Of a stretch of DNA of 64,000 nucleotides, positions 2,289-63,331 are shown in pieces (within the stretch, counting starts at the first letter, position 1; the number at the start of each line of letters is the position of its first letter). Origin of the DNA: Gammaproteobacteria bacterium (GTDB lineage: Bacteria; Pseudomonadota; Gammaproteobacteria; SZUA-152); assembly GCA_021647505.1 (NCBI GenBank), contig JAKIUN010000002.1, positions 54,158-118,157 on the forward strand. The letters are read 5' to 3'. The position numbers were made by a program, and so were the translations under genes. Under the pieces are notes generated by a model that was given only the letters and a program-made list of their open reading frames with translations, did no database searches and had not been told where the DNA came from.

Positions 2289-3242
2289 TCAGGCCTCCCA
2301 CAGGGCGCGAATAGCCGCAATCCCCTGGCCACTCTGTAACCAGGCGGCCTCGCGGTCGTCCGGGGTCATGCCACCCAGGGCATAGACCGGAAACGGCGCC
2401 GGCTCCACCAGTTCCTCGAAACGTTCCCAGCCCAGTGGCTCGATATCCGGGTGACTGGTGGTCGCCGCCACCGGCGATAGCAGGGCGAAATCGGCACCGA
2501 TGGCGGCAGCTCGGGCCAGCTCATCGGCATCATGACAGGAGGCCGCCACCAGCCCCGCACCTGCGGCCAATGGCCGGGCCTTACACTTGCGCAAGGCACC
2601 ACTACTGAGATGCACGCCATCGGCCCCGGCCGCCGCCACCTGTACGGCATCGGCATTGAGCAGCAGGCGCGCCCCATGACGATGACACAGAGCCGCCGTC
2701 TCGCGCGCCAGCTGCAAGTACTCACTCTCACCCAGCGACTTGGCACGCAACTGCACCAAGCGAATACCGCCCCTCAGACGCAATTCCAGGTGATGCAAAA
2801 AATCCGCCGGCGACATACCGCCGAGATCGGGGGTGATCAGGTAGACATCAGGTAACTGCACGGCACGCACGATGGGTAGATTGGCGGCAGGGAACTCAAC
2901 ATCGTCCAGCGCCACAGGTGACACCCACCGCAGTGGCTGGCCCTCGCGGCCATGCGCCTCCCCCTCGAAGCTATCCACACGCCACACGTCCAGCAACACA
3001 GACTTGTCTGGGTAGTCATGGCGCACGCGGATCAGTGGCCGCGCTGCCGTGATGTGAATACCGACTTCCTCGTCCAGCTCACGCTGCAACGCGCGGCGTG
3101 CATCCTCGCCAGCTTCCAGCTTACCACCTGGAAATTCCCACATCCCCCCCTGGTGGGTATCATCGGCACGGCGGCTAATCAACACCCGGCCCTCGCCGTC
3201 GAACACCGCCGCTGCGGCCACTCTCACCACCGATTCACTCAT
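2289..3242 (-). CDS. mutT: Nudix (MutT-like) hydrolase fused to thiamine-phosphate-synthase-like (ThiE/TenI) domain
   Basis: N-terminal Nudix box (GGKLEAGEDARRALQRELDEEVGI); C-terminal TMP-synthase-like domain; lies downstream of secA as mutT does in E. coli and Pseudomonas. Confidence 0.75.
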   Translation of the reverse strand: MSESVVRVAAAAVFDGEGRVLISRRADDTHQGGMWEFPGGKLEAGEDARRALQRELDEEVGIHITAARPLIRVRHDYPDKSVLLDVWRVDSFEGEAHGREGQPLRWVSPVALDDVEFPAANLPIVRAVQLPDVYLITPDLGGMSPADFLHHLELRLRGGIRLVQLRAKSLGESEYLQLARETAALCHRHGARLLLNADAVQVAAAGADGVHLSSGALRKCKARPLAAGAGLVAASCHDADELARAAAIGADFALLSPVAATTSHPDIEPLGWERFEELVEPAPFPVYALGGMTPDDREAAWLQSGQGIAAIRALWEA

Positions 3243-4478: not shown

Positions 4479-4721
4479 GATGTTCTCGGCTCTGGCAATA
4501 AAAAATGGGAACAAAAAACAGCCTACGGATGTTAGCGGCAACCCTACCCACGGCACAAGCCAGCCACTCACACAGCTCAACAACCACCTGCTAACGCGGG
4601 AGGTCAGCCTGGGTGAGCAGGCTTTCCATGCCCACGAGAAATGTGAATCAACCGCGTGAGCACACAAAACGAGCCCATCACCCTACCAGCGAGAGTTTTG
4701 CAAGAGGCTCGCGGGGCTAAT

Positions 4722-28617: not shown

Positions 28618-28988
28618 AAAGGAAGCCGGCCTGTAAGCCGGGTTCTGTCGAGAACAGCCATTCATCTGGGCGCCACGTCACCGCGACGCTCGTGCGACCT
28701 ACCCGGGAGCAACGCGGGCCACGCCAATGCTCCCCTATTTGGTCTTGCTCCGGGTGGGGTTTACCCTGCCACCGCTGTTACCAGCGACGCGGTGCGCTCT
28801 TACCACACCTTTTCACCCTTACCTGTGCACCGGTGTGAACACCGGGCCATCGGCGGTCTGTTTTCTGCGGCACTTTCCGTAGGCTCTCGCCTCCCAGGTG
28901 TTACCTGGCACCCTGCCCTTTGGAGCCCGGACTTTCCTCCACATGTCTTGCAGGCAAGACACACAGCGACTGTCCAGCCGACTTCCGC
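28618..28988 (-). ncRNA. rnpB: RNase P RNA (bacterial type A)
   Basis: Reverse complement contains the universal RNase P RNA blocks GGAGGAAAGTCCGGGCTCCA...AGGGCAGGGTGCCAGGTAAC...GGTAAGGGTGAAA.GGTG.GGTAAGAGCGCACC...GGTAAAC.CCACCCGGAGCAAG.CCAAATAGG...ACAGAACCCGGCTTA; the P1 stem pairs GGAAGTCGGCTGG with CAGGCCGGCTTCC; T-run after the 3' end. Confidence 0.85.
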
Positions 28989-29682: not shown

Positions 29683-29725
29683 GGTAGGGTGGGCAGGCTT
29701 TTCATGCCCACGTGAAATATGCGCC
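29683..29725. repeat. half-copy (one hairpin unit, 42/43 identical) of the REP/MITE-like repeat family
   Basis: ggtagggtgggcaggcttttcatgcccacgtgaaatatgcgcc is the reverse complement of the second half of the full elements at 55947-56128 and 60040-60211. Confidence 0.7.
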
Positions 29726-31019: not shown

Positions 31020-31066
31020 GGAGATTGAGCCTGGGTGGCAAACTTTTAATGCCCACGCGAAATACG
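31020..31066. repeat. degenerate copy of one hairpin unit of the REP/MITE-like repeat family
   Basis: cctgggtggcaaacttttaatgcccacgcgaaatacgagcc resembles gtagggtgggcacgttttttgtgcccacgcggttggcgc. Confidence 0.3.
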
Positions 31067-31115
31067 AGCCAACCGCCGCTGGCTGGCCAGTATGCGGCAC
31101 TGAGGCCCGGCGGGA

Positions 31116-41709: not shown

Positions 41710-41753
41710 CCCTGCATAATCCCTGCATAATCCCTGCATAACCCCTGTATAAC
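41710..41753. repeat. 4 tandem 11-bp repeats (ccctgcataat x2, ccctgcataac, ccctgtataac)
   Basis: Read directly; 107-150 bp upstream of bcsG. Confidence 0.9.
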
Positions 41754-41756
41754 CAA

Positions 41757-41810
41757 GGATTCAGCATTGAAAAGGATTCAGCATTGAAAAGGATTCAGCA
41801 TTGAAAAAGA
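41757..41810. repeat. 3 tandem 18-bp repeats (ggattcagcattgaaaag)
   Basis: Read directly; 50 bp upstream of bcsG ATG. Confidence 0.9.
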
Positions 41811-55933: not shown

Positions 55934-55946
55934 GGTATGTAAATCC

Positions 55947-56128
55947 GGATCAGGGCACTTCTGTTAATCGCTCGCGGCCTCTGGCTCGCAGCCATGTAGG
56001 GTGGGCACGTTTTTTGTGCCCACGCGGTTGGCGCATATTCCACGTGGGCATGAAAAGCCTGCCCACCCTACCAGGTTTTTTGTGGGGAGCCGTCAGGATC
56101 AGGGTACGTCTGTCAATCGCTCGCGGCC
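55947..56128. repeat. full copy of REP/MITE-like double-hairpin element bracketed by 33-bp direct repeats
   Basis: Core catgtagggtgggcacgttttttgtgcccacgcggttggcgcatattccacgtgggcatgaaaagcctgcccaccctaccaggttttttgtggggagccgtcag flanked by ggatcagggcacttctgttaatcgctcgcggcc (55947-55979) and ggatcagggtacgtctgtcaatcgctcgcggcc (56096-56128). Confidence 0.8.
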
Positions 56129-58173: not shown

Positions 58174-58248
58174 GCTCCCTTCGTCTAGTGGTTAGGACAC
58201 TGGCCTCTCACGCCGGTAACAGGGGTTCGAATCCCCTAGGGAGCGCCA
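58174..58248 (+). tRNA. tRNA-Glu (anticodon CUC)
   Basis: Cloverleaf folds perfectly: acceptor stem GCTCCCT/AGGGAGC, anticodon loop CT-CTC-AC, T-arm GGGGTTCGAATCCCC, CCA end; body nearly identical to tRNA-Glu of E. coli except anticodon CTC instead of TTC. Confidence 0.85.
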
Positions 58249-58681: not shown

Positions 58682-59938
58682 TCAGGGCTCGAAGCGAATC
58701 ACGTCGCCAGGCGCCAGGCGGGCAATGTCCTCGGCCAACTCTCCCACCGAGAACAGACGTTGTACCTGCGTCACAATCAAGTTCGTGGCCGGATTTTCCG
58801 CATAGCCCAGCGCGCGCTGGCCCGGGTAATCCTTTACCGGCACTTCGCTGAGCTTGTAGGTATTCAGCACGTCACCCACACGGATGTCGGCCAATCCACC
58901 GGCATCGAAATAGACCTTGTTGCCTTCGGCGCGGATCACTCGTGCAGTAAAGGGCTGTGAACCGACATCACTGACGATCAGTGCCACCATTCTGTCCAAC
59001 ATCTGATCCACTTCCCGGCCGAAAGGCGAAGCGAAGAATTTTTCACTCATCATCACAGTATTAGCGGGATGCAATACCGTCAAAAAACGCTCTTCCACCG
59101 TTTCACTGACCCTGTGCCGTGCCACCAAGGCTCCAGAAATACCGTCATGAATAAACAAGTCCAGTTCCAAATGACGCATTTTGGTGCCGAGAAAATGATT
59201 GCTCACACTCATGTCGCGAATCACCCCTGTGATGACGAACTGCACACCCAGGGATTCGGCGAACTCCGAAGCCACCTGATGCGGCTCACGCGCCGGCGGC
59301 AGAGCACCGAGAATGCGCCGCTGGGAAATGACGCCCTCTTCGCTCAGCGGCAGTAAGTATTGACTGGCGTTCACTGTCAGCACTCGGCCATCACTGATCA
59401 GGCGTCGTTCCAGTTCGCGCGCCAGTTCCGTTTCGATCTTCGGCAGGTCGTGAATCTGGGTTCGGTCGAGAACGTGGAACTGGCTCACGGCGACCTTGCG
59501 GCGGTAACGATTTGCCGCTTCGGCATTGCCATTCGCGTACCGGCTGGCCTGTCCGGTATCGCCAGCGCCACCCGGCTCCGCCTTCATTAGCGCCTGTAGC
59601 AGCGCATCATCTGGCACCTGGGCACGAATCTTCACATAATAATGATCTTCATCCGCCCATTCGCGGAGAATCACCACATGGGTCACGCGCCCCTGTGCGG
59701 AAAAACGCATATTGTCCGCCACCACACCGTTACGGGTCGTCACCGTGGTGATGGAGATGCGTGCATTGGCCTGCATCAGTGCCTGGCGAATAGCATCCTG
59801 CAGGGCCATACGCTTGGCCTGCGCCGTCGAGTCGCCGATGCGCGCCGCGCCCTCGGCCTCTACGGTCTGCGCCTGTGCCAGTCCGCCCGGCAGCGGCACA
59901 ATCAGCAATAACAGCAGGATTTTTAACAGCTTGGACAC
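58682..59938 (-). CDS. flgT: FlgT-like protein (flagellar H-ring assembly protein T family)
   Basis: Signal peptide; N-terminal domain resembles Vibrio FlgT (VEAEGAARIGDSTAQAKRMALQDAIRQALMQA vs YEATGQAVI.GD...AR..A.QDALRQAS.QA); adjacent to motY; GTG start. Confidence 0.5.
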   Translation of the reverse strand: MSKLLKILLLLLIVPLPGGLAQAQTVEAEGAARIGDSTAQAKRMALQDAIRQALMQANARISITTVTTRNGVVADNMRFSAQGRVTHVVILREWADEDHYYVKIRAQVPDDALLQALMKAEPGGAGDTGQASRYANGNAEAANRYRRKVAVSQFHVLDRTQIHDLPKIETELARELERRLISDGRVLTVNASQYLLPLSEEGVISQRRILGALPPAREPHQVASEFAESLGVQFVITGVIRDMSVSNHFLGTKMRHLELDLFIHDGISGALVARHRVSETVEERFLTVLHPANTVMMSEKFFASPFGREVDQMLDRMVALIVSDVGSQPFTARVIRAEGNKVYFDAGGLADIRVGDVLNTYKLSEVPVKDYPGQRALGYAENPATNLIVTQVQRLFSVGELAEDIARLAPGDVIRFEP

Positions 59939-60039
59939 AACATTCCCTCCATCGCCACCCGGGTGGCGCTCACGTCACACCCACAGCGGCAAACATCCCA
60001 ACATTCTTGAAGTCTGACGGCTTCTTAAAAAGTCTCTAA

Positions 60040-60211
60040 TTTTGTGGGGAGTCGTCAGCCACAGGCGCCATAACACGTTAAAGCCATGTAGGGTGGGCAC
60101 GTTTTTTGTGCCCACGCGGTTGGCACATATTCCACGTGGGCATGAAAAGCCTGCCCACCCTGCCAGGTTTTTGTGGGGAGCCGTCAGCCACAGGCGCCAT
60201 AACACGTTAAA
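60040..60211. repeat. full copy of REP/MITE-like double-hairpin element bracketed by 43-bp direct repeats
   Basis: ttttgtggggagtcgtcagccacaggcgccataacacgttaaag (60040-60083) + core (98% identical to the 55993-56095 copy) + tttgtggggagccgtcagccacaggcgccataacacgttaaag (60169-60211). Confidence 0.8.
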
Positions 60212-60244
60212 GAATGCAGATCCCGTGCCGACATTTTCTGCATC

Positions 60245-61228
60245 ATGGCGTACAGATGCAGCACAGCCGCCTGTCGGTGCAAAAAAGCGGCCCTCGGCCT
60301 GGTACTGCTGCTGTTATGCCCCCCACCCCTGCTGGCCAACACCCAGCATTTCCAGGCACCGCTCAATGCGGTGAAATGGGAGCCCTCCGCGAGACAAAAG
60401 TCCTCAGCTGGGCAAGAGCCCTCAGCGAGACAGGAGCCCCCCACAGAAAACCTGTACTGCAGCCTCAGCCACGACATCCCCCTTTACGGACGCGCCACCT
60501 TTGCCAAATCCGCAGGCCATGAACTGGGTTTCCGTATGACGACGAAATGGAATATCGGACTCAATGCCAAGCGCGCCCGGCTGCGCGCCATGCCGCCGGA
60601 ATGGCGCCCGCAGGCGACGGGCCAAAACCTGGGAGATATTCGCATACAGCCAGGCAATACACCCTTCCGGCTGGATGAATCCCTGACACGGCGGCTGTTG
60701 ATGGCATTGCAAAACGGCATGGAGGTCTCTTTCACCTACCCTGTCGAGCTTGATGGGCAGGATCACATCAAGGTCTCTTTGCCGGGGGTCAGTTTTCGTC
60801 CGGCGATGGATGTATTTGCTTCCTGCCTGAGCCGGTTGCCGGTATACGACTTTGCCGATTTCAGCGATACCGTGGTGCACTTTGCCGCCGGCACCGATGG
60901 ACTCAGTCCCAAAATCCACAAGCAACTGGATGCTATTGCCAAATACCTGGCCACTGACCCGACAGTGAAAAAAATCATCATCGAGGGCCACACGGATGAC
61001 ATCGGCCAATACCGCGCCAACGATAAGCTGGGACAGCGTCGCAGCTCAGCAATTCGCGACTACCTGTTAGCTATGGGTGTACCAACCGGCAAATTCGAGC
61101 TGCGCTCCTTGGGTGAACGCAGGCCCATCTATACCAACACCACGGATGAAGGCCGAGCCCGTAACCGGCGGGCCCGTATCACCCTAGAACGCAGCAGTGA
61201 CGAGGCAATGCACGTCCACAGTCACTGA
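60245..61228 (+). CDS. motY: sodium-type flagellar motor T-ring protein MotY (OmpA-like C-terminal domain)
   Basis: N-terminal domain matches MotY (F.APL...W...S...CSLSHDIPLYGRATF vs Vibrio Y.ASLDQSHW.L..S.LECTLRHDIPGYG.A.F); C-terminal OmpA/PG-binding motif (IEGHTDDIG..AND.LGQRRS.A…R..NRRA). Confidence 0.65.
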   Translation: MAYRCSTAACRCKKAALGLVLLLLCPPPLLANTQHFQAPLNAVKWEPSARQKSSAGQEPSARQEPPTENLYCSLSHDIPLYGRATFAKSAGHELGFRMTTKWNIGLNAKRARLRAMPPEWRPQATGQNLGDIRIQPGNTPFRLDESLTRRLLMALQNGMEVSFTYPVELDGQDHIKVSLPGVSFRPAMDVFASCLSRLPVYDFADFSDTVVHFAAGTDGLSPKIHKQLDAIAKYLATDPTVKKIIIEGHTDDIGQYRANDKLGQRRSSAIRDYLLAMGVPTGKFELRSLGERRPIYTNTTDEGRARNRRARITLERSSDEAMHVHSH

Positions 61229-62839: not shown

Positions 62840-63331
62840 CTAGAACGGAATATCGTCGTCAAAACCACCATCGTCGAAACTACCACTGGACTGGCCGGAA
62901 GACTGACTCTGCCCCTGACTCGGGTTCTGGCCCTGACTCTGGCTTTGCCCCTGGTTTTGCTGCTCCCCGCCAAACTGATTACCACCACCGCCGCCACGAG
63001 CATCCAACATCTGCATCTCATTGGCGATAATCTCGGTGGTATAGCGGTCGTTGCCGCTCTGATCCTGCCATTTTCGGGTCTGTAGCCGGCCCTCGATGTA
63101 GACCTTGGAGCCCTTTTTCAGGTATTCACCGGCGATCTCCGCCAGACGGCGAAAAAACACCACGCGATGCCATTCAGTGCGCTCCTGCATCTCACCGGTA
63201 TTCTTGTCCTTCCAGCTATCGCTGGTGGCCACCGTAACATTGGCCACTGCGCCGCCATTGGGCATGTATTTTACGTCGGGATCCTGACCCAGATTGCCGA
63301 TCAGGATAACCTTGTTGATACCTCGTGCCAT
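62840..63331 (-). CDS. ssb: single-stranded DNA-binding protein
   Basis: OB-fold N-terminus ([43 protein letters not shown]), Gly/Gln-rich linker, acidic tail DDDIPF. Confidence 0.95.

Follow-up and report, generated by a model that had tools for sequence, protein, structure and literature searches.

How did a hairpin-forming repetitive element come to be enclosed by two long direct repeats in the flgT-motY intergenic region, and are these repeats a product of its insertion? The site lies within a 64,000-nucleotide (64-kb) stretch of gammaproteobacterial DNA, the whole of which was analyzed and is called the window below, between the genes for FlgT (58682-59938, minus strand; Pfam domains FlgT_N/FlgT_M on the orthologue) and MotY (60245-61228). 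The original prediction described here a REP/MITE-like double hairpin bracketed by 43-bp direct repeats. Both the repeats and two inverted REP units were found, and only the length has to be corrected: positions 60040-60083 and 60169-60212 form a direct repeat of 44 nt with one mismatch (T/C at 60052/60181) at a spacing of 129 nt.

The two 44-mers enclose an 85-nt core (60084-60168, plus strand), in the order X - 44-mer - core - 44-mer - motY leader. The core is REPIN-like, with the structural features of that class, i.e., a GTAG head and an inverted, hairpin-forming doublet; its two units are GTGGGCAcgttttttgTGCCCAC at 60093-60115 and the inverted GTGGGCAtgaaaagccTGCCCAC at 60135-60159. The hairpin stem spans 60080-60171, with 40-nt arms (60080-60119 and 60132-60171) that are 78% complementary. 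Folding as DNA and as RNA, proposed earlier as a check, yielded a stable hairpin either way: the core forms a single long hairpin of -28.3 kcal/mol as DNA (z = -4.1) and is still further from expectation as RNA (z = -7.1), none of 200 shuffled sequences being as stable.

The right 44-mer consists of two parts, both on the plus strand. The first is TTTTGTGGGGAGCCGTCAG (60169-60187), the right terminal inverted repeat (IR) of a MITE from the IS10 subgroup of the IS4 family, with its outer end at 60187; the same sequence terminates the full MITE of the closest relative. The second is the original 25-nt right flank CCACAGGCGCCATAACACGTTAAAG (60188-60212), kept in L002, L004, L005, L044, and L087, the last five nucleotides of which, TAAAG, serve both as the microhomology discussed below and as the -35 element of a candidate motY promoter. 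The left 44-mer (60040-60083, plus strand) repeats both parts, i.e., a solo copy of the right IR (60040-60058) is followed by a copy of the 25 nt after the right end (60059-60083).

A second one-ended copy, composed of core and right IR, is located at 55990-56096 (plus strand) between a dNK-like gene and folK, and is 97% identical to 60082-60187. It is flanked by a direct repeat of its own, about 33-36 nt long and unlike the flgT-motY repeat in sequence (55944-55979 and 56093-56128, plus strand; 36 nt, 89% identity). The left repeat copy replaces the left IR still present in the closest relative, and the right one starts at the IR/flank junction with the original 9-bp target duplication GATCAGGG(C/T), which is thus embedded in the longer repeat. 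Pairs of direct repeats of at least 30 nt less than 400 bp apart occur in the window only around these two copies, and in shuffle tests the flank-only repeats scored z = 15.3 and 14.6. The 18-mer TTTGTGGGGAGCCGTCAG, previously noted as both the first 18 nt of the repeat and the right end of the element, is found in the window at 56079, where it likewise ends the 55990-56096 copy, at 60041 (with one mismatch), and at 60170, against a chance expectation of 0.06.

In total, seven sites in the window bear REP sequences. They include a diverged double-REP copy (4596-4690, minus strand; doublet at 4611-4677), with IR-tip-like sequence adjoining, and a singlet of the same family (29686-29721, minus strand), which has neither IR nor flank repeat. 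No flank repeats were found at the diverged or single units at 4611-4677, 29686-29721, 31033-31076, and 63224-63247. The IR-tip-like sequence gcgggaggtcag / GCGGGAGGTCAG (4596-4607) abuts the diverged doublet in an unusual orientation, its outer end toward the core. The window encodes no IS4 transposase, and a left IR was not found within 2 kb of either one-ended copy with up to three mismatches allowed, the only candidate being the degenerate one described below. A metagenome scan for further copies returned a single locus. Other features of the window are two adjacent tandem arrays at 41710-41810 (3.9 copies of the 11-mer CCCTGCATAAT and 3.1 copies of the 17-mer AAGGATTCAGCATTGAA, with 100% matches), a bacterial RNase P RNA of class A (28618-28985, minus strand, 330 bits), and a tRNA gene (58174-58245) between pcnB and the PilZ/flgT genes.

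The 18-mer proved to be the key to the origin of the element. A degenerate scan of one genome per species produced many chance matches, including some in unrelated phyla, beside a clear signal: TTTTGTGGGGAGCCGTCAG is outermost in a repeated element in gammaproteobacterial metagenome-assembled genomes, Nitrospirales, Ewingella, Chimaeribacter, and others, often at contig ends, and it closes many IS and MITE copies across diverse phyla. The 9-mer that follows TTTTGTGGGGAGCCGTCAG is usually roughly symmetric, e.g., GGTCAGACC or AGTCTGACC. At one locus (L027), two inverted copies of TTTTGTGGGGAGCCGTCAG lie 1.36 kb apart around a frameshifted IS4-family transposase gene (NF033591, 239 bits; PF01609, 56 bits), and homologous transposase genes adjoin such an end at at least eight further loci; IS copies ending in the 18-19-mer were recorded at L027, L064, L014, L009, L012, L047, and others. 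Since TTTTGTGGGGAGCCGTCAG ends IS copies that encode an IS4-family transposase, the 18-mer TTTGTGGGGAGCCGTCAG can be assigned to a DDE insertion sequence of the IS4 family, IS10 subgroup, as its terminal inverted repeat. An intact 419-aa homologue of the transposase is about 41% identical to transposases of the ISVsa5/IS10 type, which occur on thousands of plasmids. The size, the CT ends, and the 9-bp duplications tabulated for the IS10 subgroup (PMC2266710, Table 1) match those of the parent IS. The transposase is not of the IS1634 type, with NF033559 scoring 26 bits against a cutoff of 100 and IS4_2 as the best match. At L023 (82-125), the IR tip is partly duplicated just past the IS end (…GAGCCGTCAG ggtAGCCGTCAG ggtcagag), a small end-proximal duplication.

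In related genomes, the REP doublet adjoins this IR as part of two-ended MITEs, which range from 147 bp to several hundred bp in length and mostly measure about 285 bp. Three of them have 9-bp target duplications, each with eight of nine positions identical: GATCAGGGC / CATCAGGGC for L004, GCTTGGAGC / GCTCGGAGC for L021, and AGTCTGACC / AGTCTAACC for L066. Over its left 32 nt, the L004 MITE agrees with the left end of the L027 IS, and every intact, i.e., undiverged, REP doublet among those examined is joined to an IS10-type IR. Judging from these alleles, the element appears to be a non-autonomous MITE of an IS10-subgroup IS that carries a REP doublet beside its right IR. The copies in the window are one-ended remnants and not intact members of the subgroup.

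The flgT-motY copy has no visible 9-bp target duplication. Its original left end may tentatively be seen in a degenerate stretch at 60014-60039 (plus strand; CTGACGGCTTCTTAAAAAGTCTCTAA), which, when compared with the left ends in L004 and L027, resembles the IS/MITE left end CTGACGGCTCCCCACAAAAAGTTCTTTAAAAA but lacks the inner portion of the IR. Positions 60014-60031 are 78% complementary to 60170-187, no target duplication is visible at this candidate end, and the stretch is conserved in relatives, some of them element-free.

Orthologous sites place the core before the duplication. At the flgT-motY site of four relatives (L002, L044, L087, and L005), the core is followed by the right end and by CCACA(A/G)GCGCCAT… with no duplication, and the core is hence ancestral at this site. 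The element is absent there from L003, L006, L007, and L091. The closest relative (L004; assembly GCA_006240915.1 / VAPF01; MotY 96% identical) has X, a single 44-mer, and motY without any core. Compared with the window, exactly 129 nt are missing, and the junction, TCTCTAA|TTTTGTGGGG, is the one that excision of the hairpin at its base would leave. This allele was considered as a virgin empty site, i.e., the target of an insertion with a 44-bp duplication, and the possibility was rejected because a solo IR is retained and the outgroups carry the core. The 129-nt unit has TAAAG at its end; the TAAAG at its start is deduced from the L005 junction (GAAAGCCATG). Read together with its extended form (…AGAAAGCCATG), this junction leads to an ancestral sequence of the window lineage …TCTC-TAAAG-CCATG[core][right end]CCACAGG…ACGT-TAAAG-AATGCAG, which implies an ancestor in which TAAAG would have stood on either side of the unit.

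The contigs themselves bear on how these alleles are to be read. P0002 breaks at the repeat, and the contig of the relative with the next-closest MotY (L090, 1-20; 83%) stops precisely at GCGCCATAACACGTTAAAG, within the 25-nt flank. The latter suggests that short-read assemblies break here, and the allele states of metagenome-assembled genomes should be taken with care. The spacer is also a repeated landing site. A second, unrelated MITE-like family, with ends such as ACGTCATTCTGGCGAA… / CACCTGAATCCGTGA… and an internal hairpin CTCCGGTGTTTACCGGAG, is present in the same intergenic regions of relatives (L002, 3727-3855; L003, about 3010-3120; L091, about 1825-1960; L092, upstream of 1501).

On the motY side, conservation across all relatives starts exactly at TAAAG. 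The consensus of sigma-28 promoters is TAAA-N15-GCCGATAA, and the sequence just 5' of motY (60208-60247) contains TAAA-N15-GCCGACAT, a candidate sigma-28-type (FliA) promoter at 60208-60234 on the plus strand, as read from the window and its relatives. The -10-like box is spanned by a perfect 7-nt inverted repeat (ATGCAGA … TCTGCAT), which stops 1 nt short of the motY ATG, so that the leader would be very short or absent. Scans of the element for sigma-70 promoters and intrinsic terminators found none. No function of the element has been demonstrated; it sits just 5' of the conserved motY promoter-like region without disrupting it. An 18-nt tandem repeat (3.3 copies, 71% matches) inside motY, in its 5' part (60380-60439), encodes a repeated EPSARQ/QEPSARQ peptide after the signal peptide, and related genomes have similar but different repeats in that part of the gene.

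At two loci, one-ended and two-ended forms of the same insertion can be compared between genomes. At the dNK-folK site, the closest relative carries an intact 147-bp MITE with CTGACGGCTCCCCACAAAAAGTTCTTTAAAAAATGGCA at the equivalent of 55944-55979 and a right junction identical to that of the window, and the more distant L005 is empty and has the segment repeated in the window only once. With L004 intact and L005 empty, it follows that the left 38 nt of the MITE were replaced by a copy of the right flank in the window lineage. A second such locus has a two-ended MITE in L021/L045 and a long-repeat form with the same exact right junction in L089, a contig from the same assembly as the closest relative. 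The order in L089 is X - 9-mer - 38 nt of right flank - core - right end - 9-mer, and its right flank has an additional loss of 29 nt. The right junction common to long-repeat and two-ended forms at these two loci indicates that the long repeats arose in place. They are thus secondary, made after a normal DDE insertion, and not target-site duplications.

Similar rearrangements are seen at three to four loci besides flgT-motY. In L037/L074, a one-ended copy is enclosed by 51-nt repeats about 84% identical to each other, a duplication older than the split between these genomes. The orthologous positions in L092, L093, and L094 have neither element nor duplication, and L092 aligns as a single copy of the segment. 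The flank repeat at L052/L046 is shorter, about 24 nt. In the shuffle tests of flank repeats, one-ended copies with repeats scored z = 14.6-23.6, two-ended loci no more than 2.2 (n = 5), and REP singlets no more than 1.8 (n = 12). The flank repeat is absent at the one-ended copies L015/L067, L072, and L002. At four loci (window position 56097, L037, L052, and L089), the right repeat copy begins at the IR/flank junction. The return point coincides at most loci with the 5' base of the REP hairpin or lies no further than about 10 nt away; in L052, it falls inside the core. Most relatives are represented by metagenome-assembled contigs, single alleles of which may hold assembly errors.

The original account is supported in part. 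Its view of the locus as a tandem or re-insertion event agrees with the local duplication recorded here. None of the relatives examined carries the repeats as a pre-existing tandem duplication, a case that had been weighed at the outset. A conserved structured RNA, the other such case, was rejected since no Rfam family matches the region: in Rfam 15, nothing reached the gathering threshold, and only weak hairpin-like matches lay below it, potC being the best (24.7 bits vs 44). In turn, the proposal of an unusual insertion mechanism rather than DDE transposition is contradicted, the 18-mer being an IS4-family IR and intact copies having ordinary 9-bp duplications. The same applies to the proposal that 25-43-bp duplications arose on insertion, given the right junctions shared with two-ended copies at two loci. 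The observation itself therefore stands, and the exotic mechanism is replaced by a decayed DDE MITE with a secondary duplication.

As to how the repeats were made, we consider it on balance probable, with much left to doubt, that replication switched templates at the hairpin after an ordinary DDE insertion. This scheme is inferred from end products, no step having been observed. The element would have inserted by cut-and-paste with a 9-bp target duplication, and some copies would later have become one-ended, the left IR and adjoining bases being lost and a copy of the DNA after the right end taking their place. In the first step, the nascent strand would skip the base of the folded element, moving in two-ended copies from the left to the right 9-bp duplication and in the flgT-motY copy across the base of the REP hairpin. 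In the second, 24-44 nt of right-hand sequence would be copied. In the third, the strand would realign by microhomology (TAAAG at flgT-motY, AG elsewhere) at the 5' base of the hairpin or within about 10 nt of it (in L052, inside the core), and the core would be copied again. At flgT-motY, the hairpin would thus be skipped, the right end and 25 nt copied up to TAAAG, and the strand realigned on the first TAAAG before the core was copied.

An equivalent path in two steps would first duplicate [core - right end - flank] in tandem by strand slippage and then remove the first copy, by loss of its hairpin or by precise excision; at flgT-motY, TAAAG would mediate the tandem duplication, and the first hairpin would then be lost. 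The closest relative's allele, shorter by 129 bp, would be the complementary loss and may have arisen by slippage or deletion between the 44-nt repeats, or by an independent hairpin skip.

Independent signs of template switching at the hairpin come from three kinds of alleles. Firstly, the center of the hairpin occurs in both orientations, with identical sequence, in different genomes: L013 (1682-1748) and L026 (1185-1251) have 100% identical flanks around a central 51 nt that are exact reverse complements, and the window copy at 55990 (56000-56067) is related in the same way to L015 (2503-2570) over the central ~51 nt. This flip-flop implies that inversion within the palindrome would be frequent. 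Secondly, L083 contains a 130-nt partial tandem duplication in a different register. Thirdly, at the flgT-motY site of L005 (5604-5656), the doublet has collapsed to one long palindrome, CCATGTGGGGCACGTTTTTGTGCCCATACATGG, beside the IR; it matches the "long palindromic singlet" products of REPIN excision (PMC3337134).

Several observations weigh against template switching. At the return point, most loci offer only 2 nt of microhomology (AG), which is a weak point of the scheme. About 10 nt between flank copy and core (tctggctcgc, 55980-55989) fall outside the model, the right copy of the flank in L089, which lacks 29 nt, requires an extra event there, and the one-ended copies that have no flank repeat (L015/L067, L072, and L002) also count against it.

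The start of the right repeat copy suggests another course, in which the transposase itself would be the trigger. An IS10-like enzyme may have cut only the left end of a two-ended MITE or aborted its excision. The 9-bp copy at the flank end would then anneal to the other 9-bp copy and prime a short synthesis of right flank, and the element end, resected to the stable REP hairpin, would be joined to it by microhomology, resembling synthesis-dependent microhomology-mediated end joining. Such repair would account for the 9-bp target duplication at the start of the right repeat copy (window position 56097, L037, L052, and L089), for a lost segment that always includes the left IR and mostly ends within about 10 nt of the hairpin base (L052: inside the core), and for the filler-like bases at the 55990 copy. 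It does not predict the flgT-motY copy, however, which duplicates the right IR and starts at the hairpin base rather than at a target duplication, and no such transposase gene is present in the 64-kb window. Moreover, we know of no established case of synthesis-dependent templated end joining in bacteria, and the flip-flop of the hairpin center and the L083 duplication point to a transposase-independent process. We regard this route as unlikely.

A broader proposal is that a dedicated and recurrent process converts two-ended IS10-type MITEs into immobile one-ended forms with the IR replaced by a 25-50-nt copy of the opposite flank, whether driven by the transposase or by the hairpin. Recurrence of the same architecture at at least four independent loci, with the return at or near the hairpin base, would be explained equally well by an enzyme-driven process and by template switching; still, we find a dedicated process doubtful. 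If it exists and is enzymatic, e.g., one-ended cleavage with templated repair, bacteria would have their own counterpart of the footprints of templated break repair, and the process might bear on the long variable duplications of IS1549/IS1634.

Recurrence could also reflect selection rather than mutation bias, if the retained rearrangements were those that restored displaced regulatory DNA and immobilized the element. The flank copy at 55944-55979 does restore native sequence directly upstream of the start codon of the dNK-like gene (55933), and the 51-nt repeats of L037/L074 predate the split of the two genomes, the L074 copies each keeping a perfect 7-bp hairpin stem with different stem bases (as read by eye). 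On the other hand, the left copy at flgT-motY has a -35-like TAAAG with no -10, far from flgT, and brings no evident regulatory benefit. Selection would in any case explain retention and not origin, is compatible with template switching, and as the cause of the recurrence seems improbable.

Less probable still is a genuine long target duplication of variable length, in which a mobile one-ended unit (core and right end) would duplicate 25-51 bp of target, mobilized either through its REP doublet by a RAYT or by a transposase with widely staggered cuts, as for IS1549/IS1634. One-ended units at several unrelated loci do share a similar left border (…AGCCATGTAGGG), the repeats correspond to a single contiguous target in the empty-site allele at three loci, the REP heads are of the RAYT-associated GTAG type, and IS4-related elements with duplications of 8-514 bp exist for which no model has been proposed (PMC2266710). 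Yet the junctions shared with two-ended MITEs would demand two independent insertions at the same nucleotide, twice, and for the same reason an independently mobile one-ended unit is disfavored. Besides, the flgT-motY core is ancestral and present in outgroups that have no duplication, the transposase is of the IS4/IS10 and not the IS1634 type (26 bits against a cutoff of 100), the left repeat copy is not everywhere flush with the unit (55980-55989 are 10 extra nt), and enzymes of the IS200/IS605 type make no target duplication (PMC2817692). Finally, att-type site-specific integration was dismissed, as the repeats differ completely between loci (60040, 55944, L037, and L089).

Template switching thus being the preferred reading, the recurrent loss of one end with duplication of the opposite flank, together with the hairpin flip, suggests that REP-hairpin MITEs may be hotspots of template switching, able to immobilize the element and to remodel promoter-proximal DNA. 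This combination of recurrence and flip-flop is mildly new. It is relevant to the annotation of MITEs and REPINs and to studies of hairpin-driven mutation, and reveals no new class of mobile elements. A long flanking repeat can pass for an exotic target-site duplication until relatives reveal an ordinary DDE insertion with a local rearrangement.

Among known systems, IS10-subgroup ISs and their MITEs share with the element an IR beginning with CT (CTGACGGCTCCCCACAAAA), a parent of about 1.36 kb with a DDE_Tnp_1 / IS4-family transposase, 9-bp target duplications in intact copies, and a roughly symmetric target preference. The copies in the window differ in having a single recognizable IR and 33-44-nt flanking repeats instead of 9 bp, and the interior of the element is a REP doublet rather than IS-derived sequence. 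With REPs and REPINs, the element shares GTAG-headed palindromic units (GTAGGGTGGGCA…TGCCCAC), with GTAGGGTGGGCA-N9-TGCCCAC on both arms, two inverted units that form one long hairpin, singlets of this family dispersed through intergenic DNA, and, in one relative, the collapse of the doublet to a long palindromic singlet. The REP heads, of the form GTAGGGTGGGC, resemble RAYT-associated (Haemophilus) REPs (PMC2817692, Table 1). Two points differ: intact doublets are here joined to an IS10-type IR, and REPINs are not reported with flanking duplications.

IS1549 and IS1634 are IS4-related DDE elements with long variable direct repeats and no accepted model (PMC2266710). The relationship to IS4 and the variable length of the repeats, far above 9 bp, are common to both cases. 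In contrast, their repeats flank complete two-ended elements and are made on insertion, whereas those described here occur only on one-ended copies, after insertion, and the transposase is not of the IS1634 family. Long repeats around complete two-ended copies, the trait of IS1634, were not found at the five loci of this kind (z ≤ 2.2).

The closest mechanistic precedent for the forward slip would be the slippage excision of Tn10 and Tn5. Their precise and nearly precise excision, studied by Foster and colleagues in 1981 and in later work, is said to be independent of transposase and RecA, to use short direct repeats, and to be stimulated by inverted repeats. A slip between the 9-bp duplications across the folded element is common to both systems, as is hairpin loss of the kind seen in the 129-bp-shorter allele. 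The difference is that the slipped strand would here return into the element, with one end deleted, the opposite flank duplicated, and the element kept.
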